DNA of 58,875 bases from NCBI GenBank assembly GCA_016935415.1, contig JAFGRA010000318.1, positions 1 to 58,875 of the forward strand, in the 5' to 3' direction. The stretch comes from Anaerolineales bacterium (GTDB taxonomy: Bacteria; Chloroflexota; Anaerolineae; Anaerolineales; UBA11579). Both the position numbers and the translations under genes were made by a program. Below, in pieces: positions 19,705 to 36,391 of the stretch. Positions within the stretch are counted from its first letter, which is position 1. The number at the start of each line of letters is the position of its first letter. Below the pieces are notes generated by a model. It was not told where the DNA came from. It searched no databases and saw only the letters and a program-made list of their open reading frames with translations.

Positions 19705-20985
19705 TTACCCCACTAAACTTTCAATCGCACTTACAGCTTTTCCCCCCTCCGTAAATTCTCGCAGCCGCACCCCAAGTTCTTGCGCGGCTGTTTTATATTG
19801 GCTGTTCCCTAAAACATTCTCCACTGCCTCCCGAATGCGTTCTAGCGAGCCGTGGTCAGCTTTCGTCGCCAGGAAGGAATACTTCCCGTAACGCCAACGC
19901 TGCTGGATCAGGCGCATTTCTCCGGCATCCATTGGGCTAAGCACCTGAGCAACCGAGAGGCTTTCCAGTCTGCGCCCGTTAGCTTCCTGCTCGCTGTGGA
20001 AGGGTACCACCACGCTCGGTTTCCCAAACCAGAGCACTTCCATCGTCGTGCCATAACCTCCATGATAGACCACCAGATCGGCCTGCGCGATCACCGCCGG
20101 ACCAGTCACCCAATCCTTGACGATGAAATTCTCCGGCACCGGGGCAAGTTCCTCGGCCGGAATTTTGCCGCTCGTTGAAACGATCACCGTCATCTCGCGG
20201 CCACCTAATGCCTGAAAGACTTTTTCAAAGAAAGTCTTATTACCTACCGCACCTCCGCCAATTGTCACGTAGACCAATGGCCGCGTCCGGTCAAGTGATT
20301 CCAGCCAATTTGCGCCTTCGAGTGAAGCCACCGGGCGCGTCAGCGCCCCCACATATGCAGTATTTTCCAGATCATCGGGCAATGGGTCAAGTAGCGGGAT
20401 GCTGGGGATCAGGGTCAGGTCGCCAAACAGCATTTCTTCTGTCCGTTCGATCTCTGCCAGATCATACTTTCGCAGCACTTTCCCAAACAGTCGGCGCGGG
20501 TCGGGCGGCACGACGTTATCAAGCACATCCCGCCACCATACCAACCCGCTGCCACGCGGGTGCAGGATCGAGCGTACAATCTGCACAACCGGAATACCAG
20601 TCGCCTTACCGAGCATACCGGTCGGCAGCCAAGCGTCGCCAATCAACACCTGGGGCTGTACCTGCTGGATGAAGCGCAGTTGCTCCCGCATTGTCCGCCG
20701 CCACATACGCGGTGAATCTAGACGGTCGCGCACAAGTTGATAATCCATGTTGGTGAAAAACGTATACATGTTATGCCCGGATTCTTTCTCCACCGGGCGG
20801 AACGGGTAGCGCGGTTCAGATGCAGAAAATCCTTTTTTGCGCACACCTTCCAGGTGCTTCCCCGCCAGCACAAAATGGGATTCCCAGCCCGCGGCCTTTA
20901 ACGAATCCGCCAATGCCAGGCAGCGCCCAATATGCCCAAAACCACTTCCCAGGTAGCTGGGAAAGAACAGCGCCTTCTTCTTCAT
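19705..20985 (-). CDS. GT1-family (MGT/UDP-glycosyltransferase-type, GT-B fold) glycosyltransferase
   Basis: N-terminal GSGFGHIGRCLALA and C-terminal donor-binding motif VVYHGGYGTTMEVLWFGKPSVVVPFHSEQEANGRRLE, typical of macrolide/rifamycin-type GT1 enzymes. Start overlaps the upstream stop by 1 nt. Confidence 0.8.
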   Translation of the reverse strand: MKKKALFFPSYLGSGFGHIGRCLALADSLKAAGWESHFVLAGKHLEGVRKKGFSASEPRYPFRPVEKESGHNMYTFFTNMDYQLVRDRLDSPRMWRRTMREQLRFIQQVQPQVLIGDAWLPTGMLGKATGIPVVQIVRSILHPRGSGLVWWRDVLDNVVPPDPRRLFGKVLRKYDLAEIERTEEMLFGDLTLIPSIPLLDPLPDDLENTAYVGALTRPVASLEGANWLESLDRTRPLVYVTIGGGAVGNKTFFEKVFQALGGREMTVIVSTSGKIPAEELAPVPENFIVKDWVTGPAVIAQADLVVYHGGYGTTMEVLWFGKPSVVVPFHSEQEANGRRLESLSVAQVLSPMDAGEMRLIQQRWRYGKYSFLATKADHGSLERIREAVENVLGNSQYKTAAQELGVRLREFTEGGKAVSAIESLVG

Positions 20986-23348
20986 CAGTCTACTTCCTCT
21001 GCTTCCGTCGACTCAGACGACAAGATCACAATCTGGCCGCGGTCACCGTCCAGCCGGATGTAGTCGCCATCTTGGATCAATTGGGTAGCATCACGCACAT
21101 TCACTACTGCTGGAATACCATACTCGCGCGCTACCGTTGCCCCATGCGACAATATCCCGCCAATCTCGGTCACCAGACCGGCGCAGCTCAAAAACAACGG
21201 CGTCCAGCCCGGATCGGTATGCGGGGCTACCAGGATGCTGCCTGGCCGGAAGTGTTGCAATTCACTCAAATCGTGCAGTACGCAAGCCGTCCCCTCGACC
21301 ACACCAGGACTGCACGGGATGCCCAACAAACCGCCCTCAGCTACTTGCTCAACTGAGTCCGCCCGCGAGAGCACCAGTTCCGGGGCGTGCTGCTGACTGT
21401 GCGTGTTGTATTGCGCTTTCCGTTCCGCGATCAATTCAAGCGGTGAACTCGACAGACCGCGGCCTTCAATCAACGCGCGCAATTCGATGCGCTTGAAGAA
21501 GAACACGTCAGCCACTTCTGGGATGCTCTGCTCCGTGGCTAATTTCTCGCCGATCCTGAGATAATGCTGCCGCAACGCCGCAAACCCGGTGATCAACCGG
21601 TACTTGACTTCTTCACGCAGCACAGTATAGGCGCGTAGTTTCGCAACAGCCTGCTCCACCAATTTGCGCTGCCACGATGGCAATCCGGTTGCGGCAAATT
21701 TGCGCGCTGGTTTTGCTCTTGAAGAACTTATCCCACCGGCTTGGATCACACCAATATTATTGCGAATGATCTCCAACGCGTAGGTCGGGTCTTCTCCCCA
21801 GCGCGGCTGTGAAAGCTCAAATTCGCCCGCTGTTCGTCCACCATGAATTTCAAAGAAAGTATCCATTTCAGCTGCAATCCGTGCCCCAGGTTCGCTATCC
21901 AGCAACACCACCCGGATAGCAGGCCATGATTTATCATTTGTAAATAGACCAGCAAGCGTTTCATCTTCCGCCGCGATCTCAGCCACGCGCCAGAGCACTT
22001 TGCCCGGCTCGGAGGTACGCAGCTCTTCACCCGTCGACAAGATATCGGATAACAGCTTCTCGGTATCGGCTGGTGCCCAGGCATACAGCATACGCTCCAA
22101 AACCGCAAACGCGCCAATCGCGTACGTCGTCACCTTTAAATGCAAAGAGAAACACCCCGCCGTCCAACGCAGCAGTTCCGGCACATCTTCATCTAAAGGC
22201 AAAGCGGGGTAAGTATCCACCAGGCGAGAAAGCCGGTCAATCACACCCAACAGATCGCCCCAAAAGATCAATTTCGCCAGCATCACCGGTAGATTGCGCA
22301 CCGGTCGGTAAGGTAACACGGTATCCGGGTAGCGCAGGCCCAGCACTTTGCCAACCACATCCGGCGTCAAGTAAGGCAGGTAACAAAAACGGTGCAGCAT
22401 GCCAATGACCTGCACGTAGACGCGCCCGTAGAAGCGGTTCACGCCCTGACCTTCCGCGACGGAGGCGTCCTCACTCACGTTTTGGGTAAGCGTGGCCTGG
22501 AACACATCCCAGGTCAGCGGCGTGGCGACGTCAGGCAATACCTCACCCACGTTGGCACGCGTCCAAAGCTGCTCAATCTCGATGTGCTTGGGCACGGTAG
22601 TGATCGGCCTGCTTTGCAAAGCATACAAGTTCTCACCGTCCAACGCCCATTCGATATCTTGATCCGGCCCCAACAACTGCTCTACGCCTAACGCCAAGGC
22701 AATCAAGTCCGTGATCTCGCTGTCAGTCAAAATATTAGAATCGGGGATGGATAATGTCTCTGAGTGCCACGCTAATCGCAGCATCTCCGGTTCCTGGCGG
22801 CCGGACAACAATTCTTCGCCCAGTCCAGGCACAGTTTCGACCACCAATACGTTCCGGTCACCGGTGCTCGGATCAGCAGTGAACATCACTCCACTCTTGG
22901 TGGCATTCACCTGGCGCTGCACCAGCAGGGGCAAAGCCAGCGCATCGCCATCCAGACCCTGCCGTCGCAAATATACTTGCAGTTCCTCAGCATCCACTCC
23001 CGCCCAACATTCCTCAATGGCGGCTCTGAGTTGGTCAAAATTGGAAATCGAGAGGATCGTCTTGTACAATCCTGCAAAAGAAGCATCTGGCAAATCTTCG
23101 TTCAGGCCGGACGAACGCACCGCTACCAATTCACCCTGAGGGGCTAGTTCACGATAGGCGCGCACCACTTCTTCCCAGAAACTAGCCTCATCGATCCCTT
23201 CGGGTGCTTGTAGGATACAAAAACCGGGCGGCACCGGCAGCCCAGCCTGGCACAACGCCCCCAAAACAGCAGCCTTATTGCCAACCCGGTCGCCGTCCGT
23301 TAAGGTAACCGCATCCAATGGCAAAATATAACGGGAAGTCTGGCCCAT
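20985..23348 (-). CDS. PEP-utilising-enzyme family phosphotransferase: N-terminal PPDK_N ATP-grasp, long middle domain, C-terminal swivel phosphohistidine domain (rifampicin-phosphotransferase-like architecture)
   Basis: N-terminus VGNKAAVLGALCQAGLPVPPGF. C-terminus ILVAPHTDPGWTPLFLSCAGLVTEIGGILSHGATVAREYGIPAVVNV (mobile His domain). No C-terminal PEP/pyruvate TIM barrel, so it is not a canonical PpsA/PPDK. Confidence 0.75.
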   Translation of the reverse strand: MGQTSRYILPLDAVTLTDGDRVGNKAAVLGALCQAGLPVPPGFCILQAPEGIDEASFWEEVVRAYRELAPQGELVAVRSSGLNEDLPDASFAGLYKTILSISNFDQLRAAIEECWAGVDAEELQVYLRRQGLDGDALALPLLVQRQVNATKSGVMFTADPSTGDRNVLVVETVPGLGEELLSGRQEPEMLRLAWHSETLSIPDSNILTDSEITDLIALALGVEQLLGPDQDIEWALDGENLYALQSRPITTVPKHIEIEQLWTRANVGEVLPDVATPLTWDVFQATLTQNVSEDASVAEGQGVNRFYGRVYVQVIGMLHRFCYLPYLTPDVVGKVLGLRYPDTVLPYRPVRNLPVMLAKLIFWGDLLGVIDRLSRLVDTYPALPLDEDVPELLRWTAGCFSLHLKVTTYAIGAFAVLERMLYAWAPADTEKLLSDILSTGEELRTSEPGKVLWRVAEIAAEDETLAGLFTNDKSWPAIRVVLLDSEPGARIAAEMDTFFEIHGGRTAGEFELSQPRWGEDPTYALEIIRNNIGVIQAGGISSSRAKPARKFAATGLPSWQRKLVEQAVAKLRAYTVLREEVKYRLITGFAALRQHYLRIGEKLATEQSIPEVADVFFFKRIELRALIEGRGLSSSPLELIAERKAQYNTHSQQHAPELVLSRADSVEQVAEGGLLGIPCSPGVVEGTACVLHDLSELQHFRPGSILVAPHTDPGWTPLFLSCAGLVTEIGGILSHGATVAREYGIPAVVNVRDATQLIQDGDYIRLDGDRGQIVILSSESTEAEEVD

Positions 23349-23357
23349 CCGCTAACC

Positions 23358-24782
23358 TCAGCGCACCAACAATGTATAGGCACTGCGCGCCGGGAAAGTA
23401 TATGGAAAGCATCCCGCGCTGTCTAATGTCCCTATATCGGCTGGCTCGCTACCTTCCAGGTTATTCAGAATTTCCACATCCCCGGCCAGCGCGTATTCAG
23501 CTGCCATGCAGAAAGTCACCGGCGCTTTTTGTGGCCCGGCGTTGACTACCCACACAGCCACTTCATCACCAGTTGCAGAGCCTTGCCGAACGGCAAAGAG
23601 TTCCAGACCGCTCTCATTTTCAACGGCTACCAGTTGACCTTCCCCTAAATGATTATATATATTGGCGAACACCCAATAGGTTGGGTATAGATGGTAGGCA
23701 TCACCACGCGCGTTCGTGCCGCGCGAATCGGCAAATAGGCCATGTCCCGACCACCCCAATACGCTCGTGTAGGTATCTGCCAGCCGGAAGTGGATCACGC
23801 CATCGATGCCGCCCGGCCACAGGTAGGCCAACGTTTGCGAAAAATGCAGTGCGGCCGCTTCAGTCGAGAAATCCATGCCACCATCCGGGCTGCCGTGCTC
23901 AGTGCTGGCAAATTCGGTTATCCATACCGGCCCAAAGACGGAAAGCCGATCCAAACGCTGCAACAGGGCATCATTCAAGTTCTCCTGCCCGGCTTCATAA
24001 ACATGGTACGCCCAGCCGTCGCAACAGCCTTCTGGCTGTGCATTGTAGAAAGCCGCCGTCCAATCCGTGCCATGCACTTCGTCCAAACCAAACATACCAA
24101 TCTCCGGCGAGACTGCGTCAAGAGCTGCGCGTGTCTCTATCGCCATACGCAGCAAATCATCCTGGCTGCCCGTGAAAAAGGGCTCTAAATTAGGTTCGTT
24201 TACGAAAGCAAACGAAAGCCGTGCTGGTGCGATGTCGCAATCCTCCACCAGCCAGCGGAACAGTTCACGCACGAATTCGCGGTGTTCGGCGTAATCCACC
24301 GGGGGGAAGGTACCGCCCAACCCAACATAGCCGCCCGGCGTATCGGCATTCCAGCGCGCCGGCAGCCACATATTGATCTGGAAAACCATCTCGGGGAATT
24401 CTTGCCCCAATCGAGTGAACATTTCCTGATAGGTCAGGGTCTTGCCATTCTCCGGGTCGAGCGGGATCGTCAATCCAAAATTGATCTCCGAGAAATTGGG
24501 ATCGGCGTTGTCATTGACCGGTTCAATGTATTCCTGCGTGATCTGCACACGCAATACATTCGCCCCCAATGTCCGGATGCGCTCCACAAACAAATCAGTA
24601 TCCTGATCGACCCAGGCATACTCCACGCCATAATAACTTGGCAAGGATACATCCAACACATCCGCCGAGATATGTACCGTAGTTTCCTCCGCCGTTCCCC
24701 CGGCACACGCAAAGTTCGCCAAGAGCAGCAAAATCACTCCACTAAGCATATAAAAACTTCTAGCTCCCATTACGCGCCTCAT
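23358..24782 (-). CDS. Secreted lipoprotein, clan GH-A (beta/alpha)8 glycoside-hydrolase-like
   Basis: Lipobox LLLLANFAC. Acid/base motif FVNEPN and nucleophile motif VWITEFAS, as in GH5/GH39-type enzymes. Start set at ATG 24782, forming an ATGA overlap with the upstream stop. The track ORF start 24902 lies inside the upstream gene. Confidence 0.65.
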   Translation of the reverse strand: MRRVMGARSFYMLSGVILLLLANFACAGGTAEETTVHISADVLDVSLPSYYGVEYAWVDQDTDLFVERIRTLGANVLRVQITQEYIEPVNDNADPNFSEINFGLTIPLDPENGKTLTYQEMFTRLGQEFPEMVFQINMWLPARWNADTPGGYVGLGGTFPPVDYAEHREFVRELFRWLVEDCDIAPARLSFAFVNEPNLEPFFTGSQDDLLRMAIETRAALDAVSPEIGMFGLDEVHGTDWTAAFYNAQPEGCCDGWAYHVYEAGQENLNDALLQRLDRLSVFGPVWITEFASTEHGSPDGGMDFSTEAAALHFSQTLAYLWPGGIDGVIHFRLADTYTSVLGWSGHGLFADSRGTNARGDAYHLYPTYWVFANIYNHLGEGQLVAVENESGLELFAVRQGSATGDEVAVWVVNAGPQKAPVTFCMAAEYALAGDVEILNNLEGSEPADIGTLDSAGCFPYTFPARSAYTLLVR

Positions 24783-26014
24783 TCCACCGTGTCTTTCTCT
24801 TTCATCAACGCCCGCAACTTCTCCACTATTCCGCGCCGGGTGCGTCCCAGCAGATCGTATCCGGCCAGCAGAAAGATCTGCCACCAGGGTAATTGCGGCC
24901 AATTAGTGCGCAGGCGCATCAGCATTTGTTCCGAAGTCAAGTCCTGCACACGCGGGATCTGGCTATTCCAACTCTCGGCGCTCTGCCCCCAACTCGGCAC
25001 CGCCAGCCATTTTCCCTGCTGGTAGATGCGTTTGTAATCTGCGTCCCAGCCGGATTGGTAATGATTCAAGGTTTTGGTTGAGAAATCATTCTGGCTATGC
25101 GCAATTATCGCTGCTTCACCCGCCAACTTGCCACTCAACAGGGCCGGCTCGCTGCCCATGCAAGACCAGATCGTCGCCAGCCCGGCCGCATCCCCCACGC
25201 GCATCACGCCGTCATTGACCATGCGGTTCGGCGGGCAGATTGGGATCGATCCGGCTTCGTTATGCACCACTTCGGCATCTTTAAACCAGTTTGCATACGG
25301 CTCGAATTCGCGGAAAGCAGCATCATAACGCGCCTTGGCCAGCTTGCCGGGAAAGGCTACATTATCACCCAACGTAGCATAGCCGAAACTCACCAGGCCG
25401 TCATCCAGCGGATAGATCCAACCGCCACCATCACCATAATCATCACTCGGTGCCAGGAAGTAGACTTCTTCCGGATCGGGTACAGGGCAGTTCTTCAACA
25501 ATTGTCCGAAACTATGGCTGTACATGGTCGGCCGTGGCAAATCCAACCAACGGCTGGTCAGCATTGCTTTGCCGGAAGCATCAATGACCAGTGGGGTTTG
25601 GATACGCTCTCCGGAGCCGGTCGACAGTTTCCAACCGCCCTCGCGCCCGCGTTTGATTCCGGTCACATTATCTTTGAGCAGAGAGAGGTTTCCACCAGCT
25701 AAAGCCCGTTCCTGCAGAATTTCACAGGCTTTTCGGTAATGCAGTGCCACTAGGGGGTTCCCATCAAAAGGATGAGAGGACTTATTGCCAAGCGGACTAT
25801 CGAACGTAAAGCGATTGTAAGTACCCTGCACACTCTCCTGTAGACCGAAGCGCTCCACCACATCTACGAAGGTCATTGGCGTAGTCCGGTTGCTGCCCAC
25901 ATGCCTTTTCTCAAATAAGGCCACTGATAGCTCGGAGGCGGTGGAAAGCACCTCGGCTGCCGATAATCCTGCCAACCCTGCGCCAATGATCACAACATCA
26001 TACTGCATATCCAT
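24779..26014 (-). CDS. FAD-dependent oxidoreductase of the geranylgeranyl-reductase type
   Basis: N-terminal dinucleotide fold YDVVIIGAGLAGLSAAE. Internal VIDASG and RVGDAAGLA motifs typical of the GGR/FixC/UbiH superfamily. Sits between prenyl-related genes. Confidence 0.7.
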   Translation of the reverse strand: MDMQYDVVIIGAGLAGLSAAEVLSTASELSVALFEKRHVGSNRTTPMTFVDVVERFGLQESVQGTYNRFTFDSPLGNKSSHPFDGNPLVALHYRKACEILQERALAGGNLSLLKDNVTGIKRGREGGWKLSTGSGERIQTPLVIDASGKAMLTSRWLDLPRPTMYSHSFGQLLKNCPVPDPEEVYFLAPSDDYGDGGGWIYPLDDGLVSFGYATLGDNVAFPGKLAKARYDAAFREFEPYANWFKDAEVVHNEAGSIPICPPNRMVNDGVMRVGDAAGLATIWSCMGSEPALLSGKLAGEAAIIAHSQNDFSTKTLNHYQSGWDADYKRIYQQGKWLAVPSWGQSAESWNSQIPRVQDLTSEQMLMRLRTNWPQLPWWQIFLLAGYDLLGRTRRGIVEKLRALMKEKDTVE

Positions 26015-26049: not shown

Positions 26050-27132
26050 TTATTGATTTTGCTGCTGCTCGGGCGCAGGATGTCGCCAGCGGTTGTAGAG
26101 CGCCCGCAGCGGCCATAGCCAATCTGCCTGTCCCAATACCAGCCTCCAGAACAGGAACACCAGCAGCAGCCCCCATACATACACATTTTGCAAACAAGCC
26201 AGGAACAAGAGGTAAGCCGGAATACCCAGGTTGGGCAGCGTCTCGTGCAGCAGTTTAGTAGTGCTGTGTCCCGGCGTGTAATACGGCTCGACCACCACGC
26301 CCGGTTCGCCGCGCGCCATCTCGACAAAAGCCAGCACCAGAAACAGCAGGTAAAGCAGGAACAACGGCAGACCTACCGGAAATCGCAGACCGAAAATCTC
26401 CCATTGGCCCAGGTTCAGCCAAACCACCAGACATACCAACCCGACCGCCAGCTTATCGGCAAGCAAAGCGATGCAGTACAACGCGTCCATTTTGCTCGTC
26501 GAAGCCCTGGCTCCCAGCGTGCCCGCGCCGGTCTCCCGGTCGCGCAGTTGGTCATGACGCTGGTGAGCCACTTCCAGGGTGGCGCCGCTGATCGTATAGG
26601 CAGCCACCAAAGCCCACATATCCCAGCCACCCAATTCGCCCAAGGCAGCAAAGGTCAACAACAAAGGCAGCGTCCACTGCGCCACTGCCGAGACCGAAAG
26701 CCCCAATGTGCCCTTTTCTTTCAGGCGCACGGGCGGCAGCGAATAACCCAAAGCAAAGAAAATCCACAATAGCCACAGTACCACAAAACCCGGTTGCCCA
26801 ATAAAGGGAACACCAGACATCAACGCCAGCAGAAAAAGCATCATCAGTGCGGTAATACCCTGTCCCAATGACAGGTTCAGAAAAACATTCGGCTTCCCCT
26901 GGCGGCGGTCCAGATCGCGGTCGCCCCAATCGTTGGCAACGTAACCCAAGGCGGAATGCAGTAGAGCATAAACAAAGAACAGGCCAACTCGCAATAGGAA
27001 ACCGGCCGAGATCAGCTGATCGGAAAGGCCGATGTAAAAACCAAGCGAGAGCAAGACCGGGATTTTTCCCGGTCCCCAATCACGCCAGCGCACAAATACG
27101 CCTGCTTTTTGGAAGATTTGCTTCAAACTCAC
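26050..27132 (-). CDS. UbiA-superfamily membrane prenyltransferase
   Basis: About 9 TM helices. First Asp-rich motif YVANDWGDRDLDRRQGKPN (NDxxDxxxD) and a second acidic motif HQRHDQLRDRE. Confidence 0.8.
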   Translation of the reverse strand: MSLKQIFQKAGVFVRWRDWGPGKIPVLLSLGFYIGLSDQLISAGFLLRVGLFFVYALLHSALGYVANDWGDRDLDRRQGKPNVFLNLSLGQGITALMMLFLLALMSGVPFIGQPGFVVLWLLWIFFALGYSLPPVRLKEKGTLGLSVSAVAQWTLPLLLTFAALGELGGWDMWALVAAYTISGATLEVAHQRHDQLRDRETGAGTLGARASTSKMDALYCIALLADKLAVGLVCLVVWLNLGQWEIFGLRFPVGLPLFLLYLLFLVLAFVEMARGEPGVVVEPYYTPGHSTTKLLHETLPNLGIPAYLLFLACLQNVYVWGLLLVFLFWRLVLGQADWLWPLRALYNRWRHPAPEQQQNQ

Positions 27133-28460
27133 AACGCGCCCTTCTCCGCGCTCTTCCGCATCCTAAAACGCACGATCATGTCTTTGAGTACGCCAAATTG
27201 CTGTTTCACTTCAGCTAACTTAGGCAGCAACATGTCCCGCCAGTTGAGGGACGTTTCGCCAATGAACTTGAACGACAACACCAGCGTCATGACAGCGTAG
27301 CCGAATGCCGTAGCTGCCGCCGCTCCGTTCGTTCCCCACAGCGGTAGAAGTACAAAGATCGCGATGGCAGTAACAGCCACACCAATCACTGCGGCCAACA
27401 CCATCCATTGCTGTCGGTCTTTGGCCGTAAAATAGCGGATCAGCACCTTGTACAATCCCATCGCCATAATGCCGGGCATCAGCACGATCAATGGGATCAC
27501 ACTGGCCTGGTAATCTGCGCCATACACCAGCGGGATCAATAACCAGCCAGTCGACAACAGCCCGATCCCGATTAGCGCCGTAAATACCATTGTAAAACGT
27601 CCAACCTTGGCGGTGAGTGGTCCGATCTCAGCATCCTCCACAGCAGTCAAGCGCGGGAACAGCACCAGCCCAACCGAGTCGGGAATATACCACACCATTT
27701 CTCCCAGTGAAGCTGCCAGGCTGTAATAAGCCACTTCAACCGGAGAGAGGTAAATCGCCAGCAGGTACATGGATAGGCGATAATTCAAGAAGCCCAACAT
27801 ATTATGGGCATAGATCTTGGAGCCATACAAGAATGATTCTTTGAGCATCCCGCCATTAAAGCCCAATTCCACCGGTATGGTGATCATCAACGAGACCAGG
27901 GCGAACAACAACGTGGTGGTCATCACCCCAAAATAAAGTGCGATCACCTGTGTCAACCCACCATGGAATCCAAAAAAGATTACCGAGATTCCAGTCAGCA
28001 GCAAAATTCCTTCCAATAGACGCTGCAAGTTGAACAGGTCGAAACGGTCATAGGCGCGCAGGAAGGAAAGCAGCATCCGGCTCAAAAGCAAAACAGGTAC
28101 TAACAGCACCATCCAGATATACGCTTCTTTCGGCATGCCCTTCAAAACCAATTCCTGGACCGGAATGCGCAGCAGCCACAACCCGATTGTAGCCACCAGC
28201 CCCACCACCAGGCAATACGCCAGTGAATTCCCCAGCACGTAACGCGGCGCGTACTCTTTTTTCTTTAACATATAAATATTGGCCTGTGACAATCCCACGT
28301 CTAGGAAGCTATACACCAGGATCGGCAACGTCATCACCAGAAACATAATGCCCCGGTCCAGCACGGTCAGGAAGCGCGCCAACAGGATGCCGACTACCGC
28401 ATTGATGCCAACCATGATAATCTCGGCCGAGAAGGTGAAGAGTACGTTTTTGAAAAACAA
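27129..28460 (-). CDS. MOP-superfamily polysaccharide/lipid-linked oligosaccharide flippase (Wzx-like)
   Basis: About 12-14 TM helices and size typical of Wzx/polysaccharide biosynthesis proteins. ATGA-type 4-nt overlap with the UbiA gene. Confidence 0.7.
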   Translation of the reverse strand: MFFKNVLFTFSAEIIMVGINAVVGILLARFLTVLDRGIMFLVMTLPILVYSFLDVGLSQANIYMLKKKEYAPRYVLGNSLAYCLVVGLVATIGLWLLRIPVQELVLKGMPKEAYIWMVLLVPVLLLSRMLLSFLRAYDRFDLFNLQRLLEGILLLTGISVIFFGFHGGLTQVIALYFGVMTTTLLFALVSLMITIPVELGFNGGMLKESFLYGSKIYAHNMLGFLNYRLSMYLLAIYLSPVEVAYYSLAASLGEMVWYIPDSVGLVLFPRLTAVEDAEIGPLTAKVGRFTMVFTALIGIGLLSTGWLLIPLVYGADYQASVIPLIVLMPGIMAMGLYKVLIRYFTAKDRQQWMVLAAVIGVAVTAIAIFVLLPLWGTNGAAAATAFGYAVMTLVLSFKFIGETSLNWRDMLLPKLAEVKQQFGVLKDMIVRFRMRKSAEKGAL

Positions 28461-29526: not shown

Positions 29527-31041
29527 CTACTTCCTTCGATATAAATTATAAGCACCAATCGACTCGTCCAGTTCATAATGTGCTGCGATTGACGCAGGGT
29601 CATAGACTTGCGTCCACTCTCCGAACTCGCCGACCAAGAGATACTCAGGTTGACCTGCTTCGTAGAAATCATAGTAAGCATAGGGCGGCTGCTCCTGGTA
29701 CCAAATATATTTGATGGCAATATTCAAGATATCGCCCGGCGGCATGCTGCAGGCATGCTCGGCCATGAAACAAATCTCCGGGTCGTAAGTTTCGATTTCA
29801 ACATCAGCCGGGACATACTCACGAATATAGGCGCTAATCTGTTGGGGAGTATCATCATTATTGTGGACAATGTCAAGTGCACGACCTTGCAGGGAACGCC
29901 CGGCAATGATTACCAGTAATGCCAGCAAAGCGATCTTTGCCACCACCCGGGGCTGGATTTCACCCCCAGCAAAAAACCCCTTGACCTCATCCCAATGCAA
30001 CGAAAACCCATCCGTGAGATCATGGAAAATCAACGCCGTGAACAAAGCGGAGAGTGTGAACGGCAGGAAGGCATAGCGCGGCCAACCCACTGAAAGCAAC
30101 GCAAACCAGGCAATCCAGGCTAATGTCACCACCACCAGCAAACCATAAACCACGTTCGCGCGCGTCTTTTTGATACTTCTGATTCCAACGTACAATACGC
30201 TTGGGAAGATCCAGCCATAGAACGCGTCCTGCCCGGTCAGAAATTTGATCGCATCCATCATGCGCGGCATCGAGAACGTCATAATCCCCCGATCGAGCGC
30301 ACCGCTCCATTCATTGAGATTAGCACTCGCCAATTGTTCTCCATCCGGGAACAGAAAGACTTGCCCAACGTACCAGGCCAATACCGTCACCAGCGCAATC
30401 CCGAACGGTAGCAAAAAATCCCGATGGCGCAATTGTTTGTAGTAAAAATGATTCAATACCCACATCAACAGCCAGGCAGGGAAGAGCAGAAATAATTGGT
30501 TTTTGGTCAATACCGCTAATCCAAGAAACAGCCCGGTAAAGGTCAAACCCCTCAATTTTGATTTCTCCGTTTTCGGAACGATAGTCTGATACCACACCAG
30601 GATTGCGGCATAGAAGAACATCCCCGCCGGTATTTCGCCGATTACCTGGCGTCCCCAACGGATCAGATTCACCCCGCTAGAGGTGACCAACAGCAGCGTA
30701 GCGACCGATGCCACCTTCCAGTTCACCAGATTCTTAGAGAAGAGGTAAAAGACCAGAATCAACAAGAAGCAATAGATCACCATCACGATCCGTCCGGCGG
30801 TCAGGGTAGCTCCAAGCATCTTAAAAGCAATCGCCACTGGGAAGAATAGGGTCGGACCGACGGCAGGGCCGAACCGGTAGCGCCCTTCTAGTGCCAGTTT
30901 CTTGGCAACCAATAAGTGAATACCTTCATCGAAGGCAGCCTTCGGATAGGTCGTTAAGTTAAACATCAGCAAGAATGCAATCAGCAGCAACAAGAGCACA
31001 TTCAGCAGTGTGGGCAAATATTTTTTTATGATATCCATCAA
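29527..31041 (-). CDS. GT-C-fold membrane glycosyltransferase (ArnT/PMT, GT39/GT83-like)
   Basis: About 12 TM helices. First-loop motif AAFDEGIHLLVAKKL (the DE motif of ArnT/PMT-type enzymes). C-terminal soluble domain. Confidence 0.7.
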   Translation of the reverse strand: MMDIIKKYLPTLLNVLLLLLIAFLLMFNLTTYPKAAFDEGIHLLVAKKLALEGRYRFGPAVGPTLFFPVAIAFKMLGATLTAGRIVMVIYCFLLILVFYLFSKNLVNWKVASVATLLLVTSSGVNLIRWGRQVIGEIPAGMFFYAAILVWYQTIVPKTEKSKLRGLTFTGLFLGLAVLTKNQLFLLFPAWLLMWVLNHFYYKQLRHRDFLLPFGIALVTVLAWYVGQVFLFPDGEQLASANLNEWSGALDRGIMTFSMPRMMDAIKFLTGQDAFYGWIFPSVLYVGIRSIKKTRANVVYGLLVVVTLAWIAWFALLSVGWPRYAFLPFTLSALFTALIFHDLTDGFSLHWDEVKGFFAGGEIQPRVVAKIALLALLVIIAGRSLQGRALDIVHNNDDTPQQISAYIREYVPADVEIETYDPEICFMAEHACSMPPGDILNIAIKYIWYQEQPPYAYYDFYEAGQPEYLLVGEFGEWTQVYDPASIAAHYELDESIGAYNLYRRK

Positions 31042-31161: not shown

Positions 31162-32160
31162 TTAATTCTCCCCTCGCTGTTCACTCATCTTCGATGCCAG
31201 CTTGTCAATAATCGGGTCTTCAAGTCCACCCCAGCCGCGGATACCGCTTAACTGCGTTGTGGCTCCGGCCGCAAATCCACGCGTCCACCAAATGATCCCT
31301 AAAACCAGATTGACGATCAAGGATGGATGCCGCATCATGATGCCAGGGTAGACCCGCACCATCGCCACAAAGGCGCGCAAGAATTTGACCGCACCCAATG
31401 CGGGAGACATCACAAAAGACAGGAACGCGCTCCGTCCAATGAAACTCCCCGGAAGGTCAAGCTGCGCCAGTGTACAGCGCGTCACCCGGCCAATGCGGTG
31501 CAGATGAGATAGGCAATCCCGCAGGTTGCTACGCGCGTAGTGGCGCACGAGGATAGCCGGATCGAACCAAACTTCGTGGCCGTACATGCCCAGCAGGTAA
31601 TTGAATAATAAATCTTCCTGGGGATAGTAAGCATTCGGGAAACCCTCATGCTCCAGGAAAAGATCACGCTGGTAAGAAATATTACAAGTTGGGATGTGTA
31701 TTACCGTGCGCGACTCACCGACCGGGGAAAATTCACGAAACTCATATAGATGTGCAGCCCAGGCCACCGCGTCGTCCATATCGGCCGGTTCGATCGCGCC
31801 CCCTACAATCATGTGGCCGTCGGCATGGCGCGCTTCGATATTCTCAATCCAGGCTGGGTCAGCGAGACAATCCGCATCAATGAAAGCCACCACCGGGCTT
31901 TTCGCTTCCTGCACACCGTGATTGCGCGCCGGTCCTGGGAAAATGCGATGGTCATAGACAATCACGCGCACTTCAGGATAATGTACTTTGATGATCTCCA
32001 CCGTGTTATCTTCCGAAGAATCAACGATGATGACCTCTTTTGGCAGCACAGTTTGAGTGTAAAGCGATTCCAGGCAGCCGAGAATCGTCGCTCCACTATT
32101 ATAGGAAGGGATGATTACGCTGATCTCAGCAGTCCGTCTCTCTTCAGCCGCGCTACTCAC
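31162..32160 (-). CDS. GT2-family (GT-A fold) glycosyltransferase
   Basis: ISVIIPSYNSGATILGCLESL, VIIVDSSED, FIDADC (DxD) motifs. 4-nt overlap with the upstream epimerase gene. Confidence 0.85.
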   Translation of the reverse strand: MSSAAEERRTAEISVIIPSYNSGATILGCLESLYTQTVLPKEVIIVDSSEDNTVEIIKVHYPEVRVIVYDHRIFPGPARNHGVQEAKSPVVAFIDADCLADPAWIENIEARHADGHMIVGGAIEPADMDDAVAWAAHLYEFREFSPVGESRTVIHIPTCNISYQRDLFLEHEGFPNAYYPQEDLLFNYLLGMYGHEVWFDPAILVRHYARSNLRDCLSHLHRIGRVTRCTLAQLDLPGSFIGRSAFLSFVMSPALGAVKFLRAFVAMVRVYPGIMMRHPSLIVNLVLGIIWWTRGFAAGATTQLSGIRGWGGLEDPIIDKLASKMSEQRGEN

Positions 32161-33215
32161 GATTCCATCACCTCTGTGCCGGTATAGTTTGTATGCAGAC
32201 TACCGGCAAAGTTCCGCTCTTCGATCAACCAGGTGAGCGTGCGCGCTAGACCGGCTTTTAAATCCACATCGGGATGATATCCTAAGGCGTCTTCTGCTGC
32301 CTTTATGGAAAAACTCCGGTGCTTGCTCACCACGTTCACTTTATCACGCGTAAGAAATGGCGCTTGCGTAGAACGAATAATACCCAACCAATTCCCAAAC
32401 CGGTAAGCTGCTTCTATTATACTCGCGGAAACTGTCGCAAAGGCCAACGGAATGTGAACATCGGGGCTACGCACTTCCAACAAACCAGTAATTGTATCCA
32501 CAATTTCGACCATCGAATTCGAACTCGGGCCACCAATATTGAACGTCTGTCCCGGCGCAGTTGGATGCGTGCTCGCCAATAAAATGCCCTTCACCAGATC
32601 ATCGATATAGGTTAGGTGAATGTGATTATGACCATTGCCCATGTACATGAACTGGCCTACACTTAACATACCAATTAAACGCGTCACCATGCCATCTTCA
32701 TCACCGGGGCCGTAGGTAATCGTCGGGCGCACGATCACAATTTCCATCTGGTCGGCATATTCCCTGACAACTATTTCAGCTTTCGCTTTGGTGCGGTGAT
32801 ACCCGTGTCCACTTTTCTCGGTCTCGGTCGAAAAACGCTCATCGATCCCGGTCTTACCCGGAAATCCGTACACTCCAACCGAACTGATATACACAAACCG
32901 CTTAACTCTGTTCTGCGCGCATTCCAACAACCGGCGCGTGGCTTCCACGTTGACGCGCTCATAAGCTTCCTCAGATGTGCCCCAGCGATTGCGGATCGCG
33001 GCAGTGTGGATGACTAAATCATACCCGGCCAGGAAATCCTCATCCCCGCGCAGATCACTCAAATCCTTCGAGACCACATCCAGGTTTTCAATCTCTGACA
33101 CCGTGTCCAGGCTGGCGGCGCGCACCAACGCGCCGACCTCCCAGCCCATTTCTGCAAATGTGCTGGCTAGCGAACGTCCAATAAACCCCGTTATCCCGGT
33201 TAGGAAAACTCGCAT
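32157..33215 (-). CDS. NAD(P)-dependent sugar epimerase/dehydratase (extended SDR)
   Basis: MRVFLTGITGFIG (GxxGxxG), SSVGVYG, YHRTKAKAE (YxxxK). Confidence 0.85.
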   Translation of the reverse strand: MRVFLTGITGFIGRSLASTFAEMGWEVGALVRAASLDTVSEIENLDVVSKDLSDLRGDEDFLAGYDLVIHTAAIRNRWGTSEEAYERVNVEATRRLLECAQNRVKRFVYISSVGVYGFPGKTGIDERFSTETEKSGHGYHRTKAKAEIVVREYADQMEIVIVRPTITYGPGDEDGMVTRLIGMLSVGQFMYMGNGHNHIHLTYIDDLVKGILLASTHPTAPGQTFNIGGPSSNSMVEIVDTITGLLEVRSPDVHIPLAFATVSASIIEAAYRFGNWLGIIRSTQAPFLTRDKVNVVSKHRSFSIKAAEDALGYHPDVDLKAGLARTLTWLIEERNFAGSLHTNYTGTEVMES

Positions 33216-33223
33216 CCGATCAG

Positions 33224-33502
33224 CTACTCCTCATACTTCATGACCGGGCGATACATACAGCGGCATTCAGCTTTCATCGTACATTCCGGCAAAGGCAGCG
33301 TCGGCGCATCGTCAGGTAAATAAACGGTATCAGGATCGAGTTCTTGGGCTGCCTGACAGCAATCAGGAAACGAGAGCACTCGCACACCGCGGATCGAGCC
33401 ACCGGCGCGGATGCCCAGCTTGTAAGCCGCCAAGGTCTTTTCGGCATAGTTTTCCGGCTTTTCTTGATTGCGTGCGAAATCCTTGAGCCAGTTAAGCGGC
33501 AT
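33224..33502 (-). CDS. Small Cys-rich hypothetical protein (92 aa)
   Basis: ATG at 33502 overlaps the radical SAM stop by 11 nt. Six Cys (DCC, ECTMKAECRC). No recognised family. The longer track ORF start 33553 lies inside the upstream gene. Confidence 0.45.
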   Translation of the reverse strand: MPLNWLKDFARNQEKPENYAEKTLAAYKLGIRAGGSIRGVRVLSFPDCCQAAQELDPDTVYLPDDAPTLPLPECTMKAECRCMYRPVMKYEE

Positions 33503-34637
33503 GATCCACTTCCTTTCGCTTGACGTCCTGCGGCTTGGATTTATCATTCTCACTCAGACTGAGAATATTCGTGCTAACCCGGATAAGGGTGGGCACATCG
33601 TGCAGCATATTGGTATAAGCCGCGTTTGCTAACGGGCAATTGCATTCCTTGGCAGCAATACTGCGGCGCACTTCCTTGATCTTTTCGCCAAACCAGATTG
33701 CCTTGAAGTCGTAGTCGAAGTCACGCAGGTTGCCCAGATCGTCTGCGCGGATACAACACGGCCACACCGTACCATCGGCGTAGATCTGGCAGCTTGCCCA
33801 CCCGGCATAACAGGGGATCACCTGGTCCTCTTCGGCCAGGATGCGCTGCACCAGATTGTAGTACTCCAGGCGGAACGCTTCCGTAATGCGAGACATTCCA
33901 CGGTACGTACGGCTGCGGACATATTCACCAAGGCGGTTCACCGCCTTGGCATACGCCTCTCGGTCAGGGGTGATCGGCAGGCCAATCGTATCCAACTCCA
34001 CGCGTGGTTCAGCGATCTCAGTGATGAACTGATCCACGCCCGTAGTCTCAACGTATTCAATAATCTCATCCAGGTCTTTAACGTTGAAGGTCGATAGCAC
34101 CGTATGGATACCCAGGTTCAAATTGTCATATTTCTCGCGCAGTTCCAGCAAGGCGTTCAGTGTGCGCTCGAACTTCTCGAAGTTGTTGGCTACCCCACGG
34201 ATGAAATCATGCTTTTCGCCTACCCCATCGAGGGATAAATTGATAATGACTTGGGAATCCGGGCAAGACTCGCAAATTGCCGCCACCCGCTCCGGGATTA
34301 CTTTCAAGATACTGTTGGTGGGGATATTGATGATCCCAGGACGACAGTGTTTGTAAGCCGATTGTGCCAGTTCAACGATTTCATTATTAAGGAAAGGCTC
34401 ACCGCCACTGATCGTGAACCAATACGGCGCCCTGCCCAAAGAAGCCAGGGTCTTATCCCACTCTTCCAGGGTCATTTCATTCTCGCGCTTCATCCAGATG
34501 TTGCAGGTCAGGCAGCGCGAATTGCAGCGCGGCGAAGGGGATAGGGTCAGATTGATCGGCACCATTTTCGGCCAGCCGGTCAGCCGGTAAAGCCAGAACA
34601 AAGGAACGCGTGCTAAAACACCAATCATAGATTGCAT
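33492..34637 (-). CDS. Radical SAM enzyme with C-terminal SPASM/twitch-type auxiliary cluster domain
   Basis: CNSRCLTCNIW (CxxxCxxC), GGEPFL SAM-binding motif, C-terminal CYAGWASCQIYADGTVWPCC...CNCP Cys cluster. N-terminal hydrophobic segment. Start set at ATG 34637 (MQSMIG), preceded by a GAAAGG SD, 4 nt after the upstream stop. Confidence 0.8.
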   Translation of the reverse strand: MQSMIGVLARVPLFWLYRLTGWPKMVPINLTLSPSPRCNSRCLTCNIWMKRENEMTLEEWDKTLASLGRAPYWFTISGGEPFLNNEIVELAQSAYKHCRPGIINIPTNSILKVIPERVAAICESCPDSQVIINLSLDGVGEKHDFIRGVANNFEKFERTLNALLELREKYDNLNLGIHTVLSTFNVKDLDEIIEYVETTGVDQFITEIAEPRVELDTIGLPITPDREAYAKAVNRLGEYVRSRTYRGMSRITEAFRLEYYNLVQRILAEEDQVIPCYAGWASCQIYADGTVWPCCIRADDLGNLRDFDYDFKAIWFGEKIKEVRRSIAAKECNCPLANAAYTNMLHDVPTLIRVSTNILSLSENDKSKPQDVKRKEVDHAA

Positions 34638-34641
34638 TACA

Positions 34642-35487
34642 TTAAGCCTTTCTCGCCCATACCGCAGTATGGTGAGCAAATAATCGTTTTATAAACCGTA
34701 TCCGCGTATTCTCAAAATAGGCCAATCGATCCATATCAGCGTGCACTTCGGCGAATTCTGCCCGATCGTAATATGGCAGTCCATCTGCGGGCCATAGGTA
34801 GCGGCTTTCCGGTTTTACTTTGTCGGCTGCCGAACGCATGAACGGAAAAAAGTCGACGATCAATTGGCTGATATCGATAATATCCGGCCACCATGGGCAG
34901 TCCACGTGATCGTTCTGAATATCTTTGAAACCCAAACGCTCAAAATACTTTTCCCAAGAGCGCGCCTGCATTAAATCGATCCGCCCATGATCCCACAGAT
35001 CGTGAGCCACCCGGTGATGCAAGCGATGCATCCAGAAACTGTAATTATGCCGGTTTGGAACGCAGATCAATACAGCTTTGCGAGCAACCCGCCCCATTTC
35101 GGCCAACACCTGGAACGGGTCAGCTTCCCGGGGCATCACGTTGAAATTCCAGACCAGGTCGAAGCTGTTATCAGGGAACGGCAAACAGGCGCCATTAAAT
35201 TCGGTCATGAATTGAACTTCGGCATCCGGCGCGTAGCGCTCCCAGATCGCGCGTGAAAAAGCTGCGCGCTCCGCTCCTCTCAGCAGCACAGTTGCCTTTG
35301 CACCCTTTCGGGCTAAGTTCAGGCTGTTAATGCCATCGATCCCGGCAATGCCGTCGTCCGGCCCTTCCAGCACACTCTCGATTTGCATATCTGCCGTAAT
35401 GCGCAGCAGGAAACGATTAAGCGCCCATCGCTCGTAAGTTGTGCCTAGTCCACGATCGGCCGAATCAAAATACAATTCAGAATCCAT
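34642..35487 (-). CDS. Class I SAM-dependent methyltransferase
   Basis: Rossmann-type VLEGPDDGIAG...ARKGAKATVL and FPDNSFDLVWNFNV, LAEMGRVARKAVLI motifs (Methyltransf_11-like). Start set at ATG 35487 (MDSELYF), downstream of the GT2 stop. Confidence 0.7.
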   Translation of the reverse strand: MDSELYFDSADRGLGTTYERWALNRFLLRITADMQIESVLEGPDDGIAGIDGINSLNLARKGAKATVLLRGAERAAFSRAIWERYAPDAEVQFMTEFNGACLPFPDNSFDLVWNFNVMPREADPFQVLAEMGRVARKAVLICVPNRHNYSFWMHRLHHRVAHDLWDHGRIDLMQARSWEKYFERLGFKDIQNDHVDCPWWPDIIDISQLIVDFFPFMRSAADKVKPESRYLWPADGLPYYDRAEFAEVHADMDRLAYFENTRIRFIKRLFAHHTAVWARKA

Positions 35488-35500
35488 AAAGTATTGCTGC

Positions 35501-36391
35501 CTATATGATCTCAGGAAGCTTCTTTGTAGACTCGGCAATCGCCCAGGAAAACGGGTTTCGGCGCATGATCAAATAATCATACGTTGCTAAGAGTCGCACA
35601 AAAACTTCCAGCACAACGATCCCTGGCCCCCAAATGAAATACCGCCAATCGAACTTGGCGTTTTGCAGATAAAGGCGCACAATCCGCGCCCCATTCATGG
35701 TCGACACCTTGTATCCCAACGTTTCTTTAACGTAGAGATGTCCGGCAAAGATCCGGCGACGCTGCTTGATGAAATCGCGGATGTTTTCCGGGCCGCGATT
35801 GTATACAAGCGCCTCCGGCGCGTATGCCAGACGCATGCCCTGCCCGATGACCAACGGCTCAATGCTGGCCTCATCGACAGCAGTTTCATTGGGGATTTGA
35901 TAGAAAATATTGCGGAAGGCGATCAATTCACCAATCTTCGGGTAGCGCAGGGAAACCAGGTGATGTAGGTCCCACAACAAATTGATTCCGAAGCCAATAA
36001 ATGTATCGTCTAAATTGGTAGGTATAGGATGTCCGCCCACCATACCAACGTTCGGGTCCTCAAAAGGCGACACCAAAGCTTCAATTGTGCCTTCAACCGG
36101 GACGGTATCCGCGCTTTGCATAACCACGATCTTGTGGTCAATATTGCGCATGAACAGATTAACTGCCGACGCCTTACCCTCCCGCTTTTCCTGCACAAGC
36201 AGTTCTACCCGGGAATCTTTCTGGGCAATTTCGCATACAATATCCTCAGTGCCGTCCGTACAACCACTGGCTACGACAATAATCCGATCGATAGCTACTT
36301 TCTCGGTCTTCTGATTTAACAGTCCCTCGAGTAAACGGCCAATATTGGCTGCCTCATTATATGCCATAATACCAATACAACAGTGAAGCAT
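35501..36391 (-). CDS. GT2-family glycosyltransferase, first gene of the operon
   Basis: CIGIMAYNEAANIGRLLEGL, IIVVASGCTDGT, MQSADT (DxD-equivalent). GGAGGAG SD at 36394-36400 (complement). Confidence 0.8.
   Translation of the reverse strand: MLHCCIGIMAYNEAANIGRLLEGLLNQKTEKVAIDRIIVVASGCTDGTEDIVCEIAQKDSRVELLVQEKREGKASAVNLFMRNIDHKIVVMQSADTVPVEGTIEALVSPFEDPNVGMVGGHPIPTNLDDTFIGFGINLLWDLHHLVSLRYPKIGELIAFRNIFYQIPNETAVDEASIEPLVIGQGMRLAYAPEALVYNRGPENIRDFIKQRRRIFAGHLYVKETLGYKVSTMNGARIVRLYLQNAKFDWRYFIWGPGIVVLEVFVRLLATYDYLIMRRNPFSWAIAESTKKLPEII

Follow-up and report, generated by a model that had tools for sequence, protein, structure and literature searches.

A radical SAM enzyme and its small Cys4 neighbour in a Chloroflexota surface-glycan operon: a candidate accessory subunit of a sugar-tailoring module

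Genes for radical S-adenosylmethionine (rSAM) enzymes of the SPASM type that lie beside a small cysteine-rich open reading frame (ORF) are routinely taken as clusters for ribosomally synthesized and post-translationally modified peptides (RiPPs). Such a pair lies on contig JAFGRA010000318.1 of an Anaerolineales bacterium, within the 58,875-nucleotide stretch of DNA that we analysed as a whole and call the window, and the question that it raises is what the small protein, of 92 amino acids (aa), does for its neighbour. A reading of the sequence alone had proposed either a RiPP-like substrate of the rSAM or a metal- or Fe-S-binding accessory subunit, with a lipid as another possible substrate for the enzyme. 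Here, we argue, with a probability of about one half, that the small protein serves as an accessory or adaptor subunit, one that binds metal, in a module that tailors a membrane-anchored sugar, and not as a RiPP precursor; if so, the routine reading would be wrong at this locus.

Five results speak against a peptide substrate and so favour the option of an accessory subunit, with metal binding as something that we infer. The clade of the rSAM is older than the small gene; the small protein has paralogues with no rSAM beside them; no RiPP recognition element (RRE) is found; the enzyme keeps five auxiliary cysteines; and fusion proteins link the small domain not only to the rSAM but to a family-2 glycosyltransferase (GT2) and to a short-chain dehydrogenase/reductase (SDR). 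A RiPP-like role for the small protein is, on this evidence, unlikely.

The small gene and its company

Window coordinates are used throughout, and the operon described here consists of co-directional genes of the minus strand. The features on which the argument turns are the following.

33492..34637, minus strand: radical SAM enzyme, 381 aa, with an abridged SPASM or twitch-like C-terminal domain (Pfam) and a predicted N-terminal helix
34503..34526, minus strand: CxxxCxxC motif CNSRCLTC, residues 38-45 (C38, C42, C45), for the [4Fe-4S] cluster of the radical SAM core; conservation 99% over 94 family members
33636..33812, minus strand: predicted auxiliary-cluster region with C276, C294, C295, C332 and C334 (conservation and Pfam SPASM)
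33224..33502, minus strand: small protein, 92 aa, N-terminal helices and a C-terminal Cys4 module (orthologue alignment and structure model)
33422..33448, minus strand: YAEKTLAAY motif, residues 19-27, specific to the rSAM-linked subfamily (alignment of 21 orthologues)
33356..33358, minus strand: Cys49, first ligand of the putative Cys4 site (invariant; aligned with a cysteine of the paralogue family)
33257..33283, minus strand: C74-x5-C80-x-C82 and then the YRPVM strand, putative Cys4 core (invariant; common to the paralogues)

The small ORF begins, as had been noted at the outset, 11 nucleotides (nt) before the rSAM stop codon: its ATG lies at 33502, with the Shine-Dalgarno sequence AAGGAAG upstream, and the rSAM stop at 33494-33492. 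This start is confirmed by the orthologues, which open with M(P/S/A)F.WL. The ORF ends with a TAG at 33226-33224, and the ATG of the SDR gene begins 8 nt later. Its cysteines number five (residues 48, 49, 74, 80 and 82), one fewer than the six originally counted. Between the window copy and that of a genus-mate there are 39 synonymous versus 8 non-synonymous codon differences, and the nucleotide differences are distributed 9/3/43 over the three codon positions (43 of 55 at the third); this is a real gene under purifying selection and no chance frame. A large protein collection holds 56 protein clusters of full-length relatives, 54-65% identical and all named "hypothetical protein", from Promineifilum, Anaerolineales and similar Chloroflexota, and a scan of one genome per species gave 116 loci with an orthologue. 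The small protein defines a family that has no match in Pfam or NCBIfam even at an E value of 10, and its family profile matches no PDB sequence.

An alignment of 21 orthologues has 30 invariant positions, among them C49, C74, C80, C82 and Y.RP.M.Y; eight of the nine positions of YAEKTLAAY are invariant and K22 is kept in at least 90% of the sequences. Conservation extends along the entire protein and variation is confined to the last few residues. This pattern, which the sequence-only reading had proposed to examine, is that of a subunit and not of a precursor.

The same reading had proposed to look for co-occurrence, and homologues of the two ORFs do co-occur, mostly as adjacent genes. Of the 116 loci, 80 were fetched, and 63 species-level loci had flanks long enough for counting. 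An intact same-strand rSAM orthologue lies upstream of the small gene in 45 of these 63, with a gap of at most 200 nt in 29 of the 45; an orthologue of the window's first GT2 (GT2a; 300-470 bits) adjoins the rSAM in 46/63, and in 24/63 an SDR gene starts no more than 300 nt downstream of the small gene. Three long Promineifilum-like contigs carry the order GT2a, rSAM, at times one inserted gene, small gene, in some cases a methyltransferase-like gene, and SDR. The conserved module is a GT2, optionally a methyltransferase-like protein, the rSAM, the small protein and an SDR or GT2. Where the small gene is unlinked, 15 of 16 genomes still encode, elsewhere, an rSAM at least 71% identical; a single genome has a small orthologue without a matching rSAM, and in the sampled genome set there is no case of a small orthologue without that rSAM clade. 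Among 41 genomes of the window's own order, the small orthologue occurs only in the window's genus and a close rSAM in only three genomes.

Two side observations concern this module. The gene inserted between rSAM and small gene in Promineifilum-like genomes encodes a ComEA-like helix-hairpin-helix protein (Pfam EAD7 / HHH_3; L009:7453-7890, L010:3191-3628, L011:7522-8019). Contigs with GT2a, rSAM and small gene are also labelled as Gemmataceae, Planctomycetaceae, Acidobacteria, Verrucomicrobia and Deltaproteobacteria (L081, L085, L113, L120, L125, L134, L136, L139, L140, L141); the rSAMs of all of them nest within the Chloroflexota clade, so that these off-phylum modules reflect either horizontal transfer or mis-binning.

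The history of the pair is asymmetric. Sampling of 301 genomes of the class showed the rSAM family in 151 and its GT2a-linked form in about a dozen. A maximum-likelihood tree of the rSAMs divides into two clades, one of them GT2a-linked, and all rSAMs associated with the small gene form a single clade (support 99/86) inside it. The sister of that clade (100/100) is the rSAM of genome G031, 71% identical, whose operon reads methyltransferase-like gene, rSAM, SDR and second GT2 (GT2b), with ~15 nt between rSAM and SDR; the small gene is absent from the whole G031 genome, which is 98% complete, and it was not found in the deeper GT2a-linked branches. With the small gene in one rSAM clade only, and the sister and deeper branches devoid of it, its acquisition was therefore a single late addition, since retained. 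The tree thus suggests that the GT2-rSAM-SDR module worked before the small gene joined.

In the other rSAM clade, most fetched loci show the gene closing an operon at its 3' end; the same operon encodes several B12-dependent rSAMs and, in many cases, another rSAM of the SPASM type. In other Anaerolineae it comes last in an operon of five genes, all of them for rSAMs, three B12-binding and two SPASM-type (L042:2165-9114; also L035, L039, L047, L048, L053, L059, L060), in which there is no glycosyltransferase and no evident peptide gene. A distant rSAM homologue is also found in an 899-aa open frame (L142:5115-7814, minus strand) behind an ammonium-transporter-like polytopic membrane domain of ~510 aa; this could be a real fusion or a lost stop codon.

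Gene fusions were sought with a query restricted to the small-domain part, long proteins being allowed. In one fetched locus rSAM and small protein share a single 510-aa frame, and the same fusion occurs on an independent contig; three more rSAM-linker-small proteins are 497-498 aa long (the rSAM-linker-small set being P0178, P0179, P0181 and P0182). In P0180 (407 aa) the small domain forms the N-terminus of a GT2, and the gene context of the rSAM-small and small-GT2 fusions is the same module. An exhaustive profile search added a small-SDR fusion, P0192 (425 aa). In metagenomes, fusions of the small domain with three different enzymes are thus tolerated, the pattern that partners acting next to one another would give. 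Separately, the 185-aa metagenome protein P0184 contains two tandem small domains, which suggests that the module can work as a dimer or repeated unit.

Substrate, electron carrier or adaptor

The rSAM frame runs from 34679/34637 to 33492, and its start was set at ATG 34637 because the N-terminus M(N/K/Q)SM.GVLAR.PLF is conserved in 54 orthologues. The canonical CxxxCxxC motif that had been recognized is there at residues 38-45, and Pfam identifies the Radical_SAM domain (4.5e-14). The multi-cysteine SPASM or twitch region claimed for the C-terminus also stands (SPASM 7.4e-08, weak at 33 bits), with one correction: among the six cysteines of PCYAGWASC...WPCC...ECNCP, C283 is kept in only 6% of the 94 family members, whereas C276, C294, C332 and C334 occur in all of them and C295 in 99%, so that five of six are conserved. 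A full SPASM domain has a seven-Cys motif that binds two auxiliary [4Fe-4S] clusters. Conservation over the 94 members shows that this full set is not present; the spacing C-x17-CC-x36-C-x-C is compatible with a single cluster, in a region where the AlphaFold2 confidence is <50, and a single auxiliary cluster appears to suit five cysteines better than the pair that full SPASM domains have.

Family models place the enzyme near no characterized maturase. At NCBIfam cut-offs no model was reached, and the scans assigned the rSAM to no family with a known substrate; the best was N_Twi_rSAM (NF033640, twitch domain-containing radical SAM) at 83 versus 170 bits, and peptide-maturase models gave 30-50 bits against cut-offs of 265-650. 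Two assignments were rejected on such scores, mycofactocin (MftC 38.7 vs 265, MftF 99.6 vs 280, MftM 15.3 vs 200) and hopanoid (HpnH 36 vs 225, HpnA 135 vs 368, HpnB 16.7 vs 379 bits). Pfam finds no B12-binding domain in the rSAM. Neither Pfam nor NCBIfam gave an RRE (PqqD-like) match on any of the 14 operon proteins, and the ~37 residues ahead of the cluster motif leave no room for one in the rSAM itself. Structure comparison of the rSAM model with Foldseek gives SkfB, anSME, DesII (3.6e-07), CteB, BlsE (6.9e-06), PqqE and MoaA as the nearest solved structures, SkfB and anSME at the top; a sequence search of PDB finds SkfB and BlsE only, weakly. The predicted fold places the enzyme in the SPASM/twitch group, and its sequence points to an uncharacterised Chloroflexota family of twitch or abridged-SPASM enzymes. 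We found no literature describing this family in such glycan clusters.

Could the small protein nonetheless be a protein substrate of this enzyme, in the manner of QhpC, SCIFF or the sulfatase targets of anSME? Its Cys-rich C-terminus would then receive thioether or other cross-links, and the matured form would serve the glycan pathway or carry a cofactor. The presence of SkfB, anSME and CteB among the nearest structures is in keeping with this, as are a matching rSAM in every genome but one that has the small orthologue, the translational coupling of the two ORFs, the existence of rSAM-small fusions, and the invariant cysteines and YRPVM.YE tail. Against it stand the greater age of the rSAM clade and the G031 sister operon without the small gene, the lack of an RRE or PqqD in enzyme or operon, the limit of five auxiliary cysteines, the fusions to GT2 and SDR, and the maturase scores far below their cut-offs. 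What weighs further against this account is the conservation of the four cysteines in proteins that have no rSAM nearby, and we judge it quite improbable.

A search with the small protein brought those proteins to light: 32 of 41 related genomes gave weak matches, and the genome of the window, which has a second copy, is one of the 32.

C118:5236-5436 (L014:5221-5553), minus strand: same-genome paralogue on contig C118, 110 aa, with an N-terminal double zinc ribbon and the Cys4 module, ending YEPVLEEIYP

Profile-profile alignment (hhalign) of the small family with the paralogues indicates homology over residues 26-89 with the cysteines aligned (probability 98%, E 9e-14); the paralogues align from residue 26 on only, that is, past most of the YAEKTLAAY motif. 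In ten loci examined none of the paralogues lies next to an rSAM, GT2 or SDR, and no conserved neighbours of the rSAM-less paralogues were found. The exhaustive profile search gave 183 representative clusters at E <=1e-3, in which the Cys4 module also stands at the C-terminal end of some SAP-domain proteins and, in one, after a GGDEF domain. The small protein can thus be described, at the level of sequence, as a helical, subfamily-specific N-terminus joined to a C-terminal Cys4 module that appears also in proteins unrelated to rSAMs. Since proteins with and without rSAM partners have the four invariant cysteines in common, these would form a structural metal site and not cross-linking sites; C49, C74, C80 and C82 probably bind Zn or Fe.

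A Cys4 iron site raises the alternative of a rubredoxin-like Fe(Cys)4 electron carrier to or from the Fe-S clusters of the rSAM, for instance in a dehydrogenation of the BtrN type. Twitch dehydrogenases need an electron outlet through their auxiliary cluster. The small protein would meet that need with four invariant cysteines in a compact domain that AlphaFold2 models with confidence (a small alpha/beta fold; mean predicted local distance difference test, pLDDT, 86.6), and it belongs exclusively to a single rSAM clade, with fusions to that rSAM in several metagenomes. Its C-x24-C-x5-C-x-C spacing, however, differs from the CxxC...CxxC of rubredoxin, no rubredoxin or ferredoxin match was obtained in Pfam, NCBIfam or PDB, and the fold matches described below are not redox proteins. 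The module also occurs in SAP-domain and GGDEF proteins and in GT2 and SDR fusions, none of which needs an electron carrier. We regard this role as unlikely.

The fold matches point elsewhere. Nothing below E 1.8 was found when the small-protein model was compared with PDB by Foldseek, whereas a comparison with predicted viral structures (BFVD) returned a list dominated by head morphogenesis or MuF-like minor capsid proteins, the best at E 7.3e-03, probability 1.0, template modelling score 0.54 and root-mean-square deviation 2.7 A over 74 columns with 31% identity. The MuF family PF04233 has no match to the small protein at E up to 10 and none genome-wide, and it matches one paralogue only (E 0.22); a tblastn of the small protein against 50,697 phage records gave one chance-level match (E 3). 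Because the genome scan with PF04233 is empty, the MuF link consists of fold matches only, and we take it as a lead at the level of the fold, one worth noting since phages carry MuF as a module joined to a wide range of enzymes (PMC5512222).

The operon and a possible route to a tailored sugar

In the order of transcription on the minus strand the operon encodes GT2a, the methyltransferase-like protein, the rSAM, the small protein, the SDR, GT2b, a GT-C (PMT_2) protein, a polyprenyl synthase, a MOP flippase, a UbiA enzyme, a GGR-type flavoprotein, a glycosidase-like protein, a phosphoenolpyruvate (PEP)-utilising enzyme and a GT1.

35501..36391, minus strand: GT2a, family-2 glycosyltransferase, 296 aa, with a C-terminal hydrophobic segment (Pfam Glycos_transf_2 5.7e-23)
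34642..35538, minus strand: methyltransferase-like protein, 298 aa (Pfam Methyltransf_11 1.1e-06, partial match)
32157..33215, minus strand: SDR, NAD-dependent epimerase/dehydratase, HpnA/OleD-like, 352 aa (Pfam Epimerase 5.4e-38)
31162..32160, minus strand: GT2b, second family-2 glycosyltransferase, 332 aa (domain scans)
29527..31041, minus strand: GT-C type membrane glycosyltransferase, PMT_2 / ArnT-like (Pfam PMT_2 2.5e-07)
27129..28460, minus strand: MOP/Wzx-type flippase (Pfam Polysacc_synt 5.8e-13)
26050-27132, minus strand: UbiA prenyltransferase
24779-26014, minus strand: GGR-type flavoprotein
23358-24902, minus strand: glycosidase-like gene
20985-23348, minus strand: PEP-utilising enzyme without the TIM barrel, with a domain order like that of rifampicin phosphotransferase

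The genes of the module are tightly packed, with 4 nt between the methyltransferase-like stop and the rSAM ATG and a 4-nt overlap of GT2b with the SDR stop. GT2a is constantly the upstream partner of the rSAM, and its best PDB relative is 6yv7, a membrane GT2. Orthologues of the methyltransferase-like gene lie upstream of the rSAM in L076, L085, L090, L128 and L146, those of GT2b downstream of the small gene in L062, L076, L090 and L128, and GT-C genes recur near the module in L009, L011, L148 and L149, with flippases also nearby. At the level of domains only, the window unites in one locus the types of polyprenyl-phosphate sugar synthase (two GT2 and UbiA), a Polysacc_synt flippase and PMT_2, and its layout matches pathways in which a sugar is built on polyprenyl phosphate, modified while it faces the cytoplasm, flipped across the membrane and then transferred on the outer side. 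From its domain content, the module appears to be part of an operon for a lipid-linked surface glycan, flippase and GT-C included.

Precedents exist for both kinds of enzyme. SDR epimerases act on polyprenyl-phosphate sugars in three-component systems and so set the identity of the lipid-linked sugar (PMC11127046), and the rSAM enzymes Cds and HpnJ have been proposed to remodel a lipid-attached sugar in the synthesis of calditol and of the hopanoid cyclitol ether (PMC13459092). In view of these precedents, the constant GT2 and SDR partners and the GT-C and flippase genes nearby, we propose a membrane-anchored sugar as the substrate of the rSAM. GT2a would make this sugar; the rSAM would abstract a hydrogen atom from it, with oxidation, epimerisation or ring rearrangement as the outcome; the SDR, with the methyltransferase-like protein, would complete the change; and the small Cys4 protein, a cytoplasmic protein of two parts, would physically couple the rSAM to the SDR and/or the GT2.

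An isoprenoid lipid was the other substrate envisaged in the sequence-only reading, the enzyme forming a C-C bond, cyclising or methylating as do Tes, GrsA and HpnH. The window operon does encode a polyprenyl synthase, a UbiA prenyltransferase and a GGR-type reductase; the conserved N-terminal helix of the rSAM could sit on the membrane, and the five-rSAM operons of the sister subfamily, with their three B12-dependent members, are reminiscent of lipid-modifying rSAM sets. Over the related loci the case becomes weak: a homologue of the polyprenyl synthase, the sole isoprenoid gene in the neighbour search, lies within 10 kb in 1 of 80, whereas GT2a and SDR are the constant neighbours, and HpnH falls far short of its cut-off. 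A lipid substrate is in our estimate a distinctly remote prospect.

Several observations weigh against an adaptor that serves the rSAM on a sugar. The small gene is apart from the rSAM in about 25-30% of genomes, and because of this its direct partner may not be the rSAM. Moreover, the co-occurrence of the two partly reflects shared ancestry in Ardenticatenales/Promineifilales. The fusions could be stop-codon losses, since rSAM, SDR and GT2 are all usual gene neighbours, and the rSAM-small fusion would equally fit a substrate held in cis. The AlphaFold2 model of the rSAM is of moderate quality (pLDDT 66), its Fe-S regions poorly defined, and its fold leaves the substrate undecided because the nearest structures mix modifiers of peptides and proteins (SkfB, anSME, CteB, PqqE) with sugar enzymes (DesII, BlsE). 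What the data show is a real gene, its conservation, linkage, co-occurrence across genomes, single late gain and fusions, and an rSAM that has neither an RRE nor the full SPASM cysteine set; complex formation, the sugar substrate and the chemistry are, like metal binding, what we infer from them.

The first of these observations also invites the view that the small protein has nothing to do with the rSAM and merely rides in the operon, for example as a nucleic-acid-binding regulator or a general factor of the glycan pathway. Roughly one orthologue in four is not close to the rSAM, SAP-domain (DNA-binding) and GGDEF proteins contain distant relatives of the module, and the close relative operon of G031 works without the small gene. 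Yet the small gene was gained once in a single rSAM clade and then retained almost universally with that rSAM, and at least four distinct protein clusters carry the rSAM-small fusion in frame. Nor do the unlinked copies leave the pathway. Context A places the small gene between a GT2 with a glycosidase-like gene and a ParB/Usp protein, context B between an SDR and a methyltransferase-like gene; together they make up 14 of 18 unlinked loci, in which the neighbours are still the glycan enzymes SDR, methyltransferase-like protein and GT2. (The glycosidase-like neighbour in context A has no homology to the glycosidase-like gene of the window at 23358-24902.) Such an unrelated function seems to us very improbable, and an adaptor of the module remains our preferred account.

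A bolder form of that account, which we offer as a rather doubtful speculation, makes the small protein a cellular descendant of the phage MuF-type cargo-tethering module, now a dedicated subunit for docking that locks a twitch-type rSAM sugar oxidase to the SDR and GT2 on the membrane. The whole would be a machine independent of oxygen and flavin that oxidises and then reduces, or rearranges the ring of, a polyprenyl-phosphate sugar, an anaerobic counterpart of DprE1/DprE2. If this were true, the small protein would be a new kind of rSAM partner and the MuF-type module would have its first assigned role outside viruses. The single gain and the fusions to three enzymes in any event offer a testable example of how an rSAM is wired to its pathway partners, and the reaction, once worked out, would bring to light a new way of modifying a lipid-linked sugar in the little-known envelope of the filamentous Chloroflexota, whose named relatives here include metagenome-assembled genomes from activated sludge.

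Comparison with known systems

The peptide maturation systems SkfB/SkfA, anSME, CteB/SCIFF, MftC/MftA/MftB and QhpD/QhpC resemble the window in that an rSAM with a C-terminal Fe-S domain stands beside a small Cys-containing ORF. They differ from it in nearly every further respect: here there is no RRE, the auxiliary cysteines are five versus seven, the small ORF is conserved end to end, a sister operon dispenses with it, and it has paralogues with no rSAM nearby. In RiPP/SPASM systems the precursor is expected to accompany its maturase, whereas the small gene is missing in G031 and in the deeper branches. The viral family PF04233 (MuF / SPP1 gp7) may resemble the small protein in fold; the setting here is cellular, and there is no PDB match.

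Among sugar enzymes, BtrN, DesII and BlsE share with the rSAM a core followed by a short Cys-rich auxiliary domain, the lack of an RRE and a sugar-tailoring gene setting. Their identity to it is 15-19% and no family model was reached; their substrates are the soluble nucleotide-sugars or aminocyclitols of antibiotic pathways, whereas here there are a membrane GT2, a surface-glycan operon and a Cys4 partner. Three-component systems have in common with the window GT2s, a UbiA-family enzyme, a MOP flippase, a GT-C and an SDR, the logic of the SDR being as described for them (PMC11127046). The sets HpnI (glycosyltransferase)/HpnJ (rSAM)/HpnA (SDR) and archaeal Cds are like this module in combining a glycosyltransferase, an rSAM and an SDR, which are proposed to rearrange a lipid-attached sugar (PMC13459092). 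HpnA is the best NCBIfam match of the window's SDR, a likeness below the cut-off (135 vs 368), and no hopanoid genes were seen. HpnJ carries a B12-binding domain, which by Pfam this rSAM does not. To our knowledge, neither the Hpn and Cds systems nor the three-component systems (DprE1/DprE2 in mycobacteria) include a small Cys4 partner, and for the latter no radical SAM enzyme has been described either. What is new here is an uncharacterised GT2-rSAM-SDR module, proposed to tailor a sugar, with a lineage-specific Cys4 partner.

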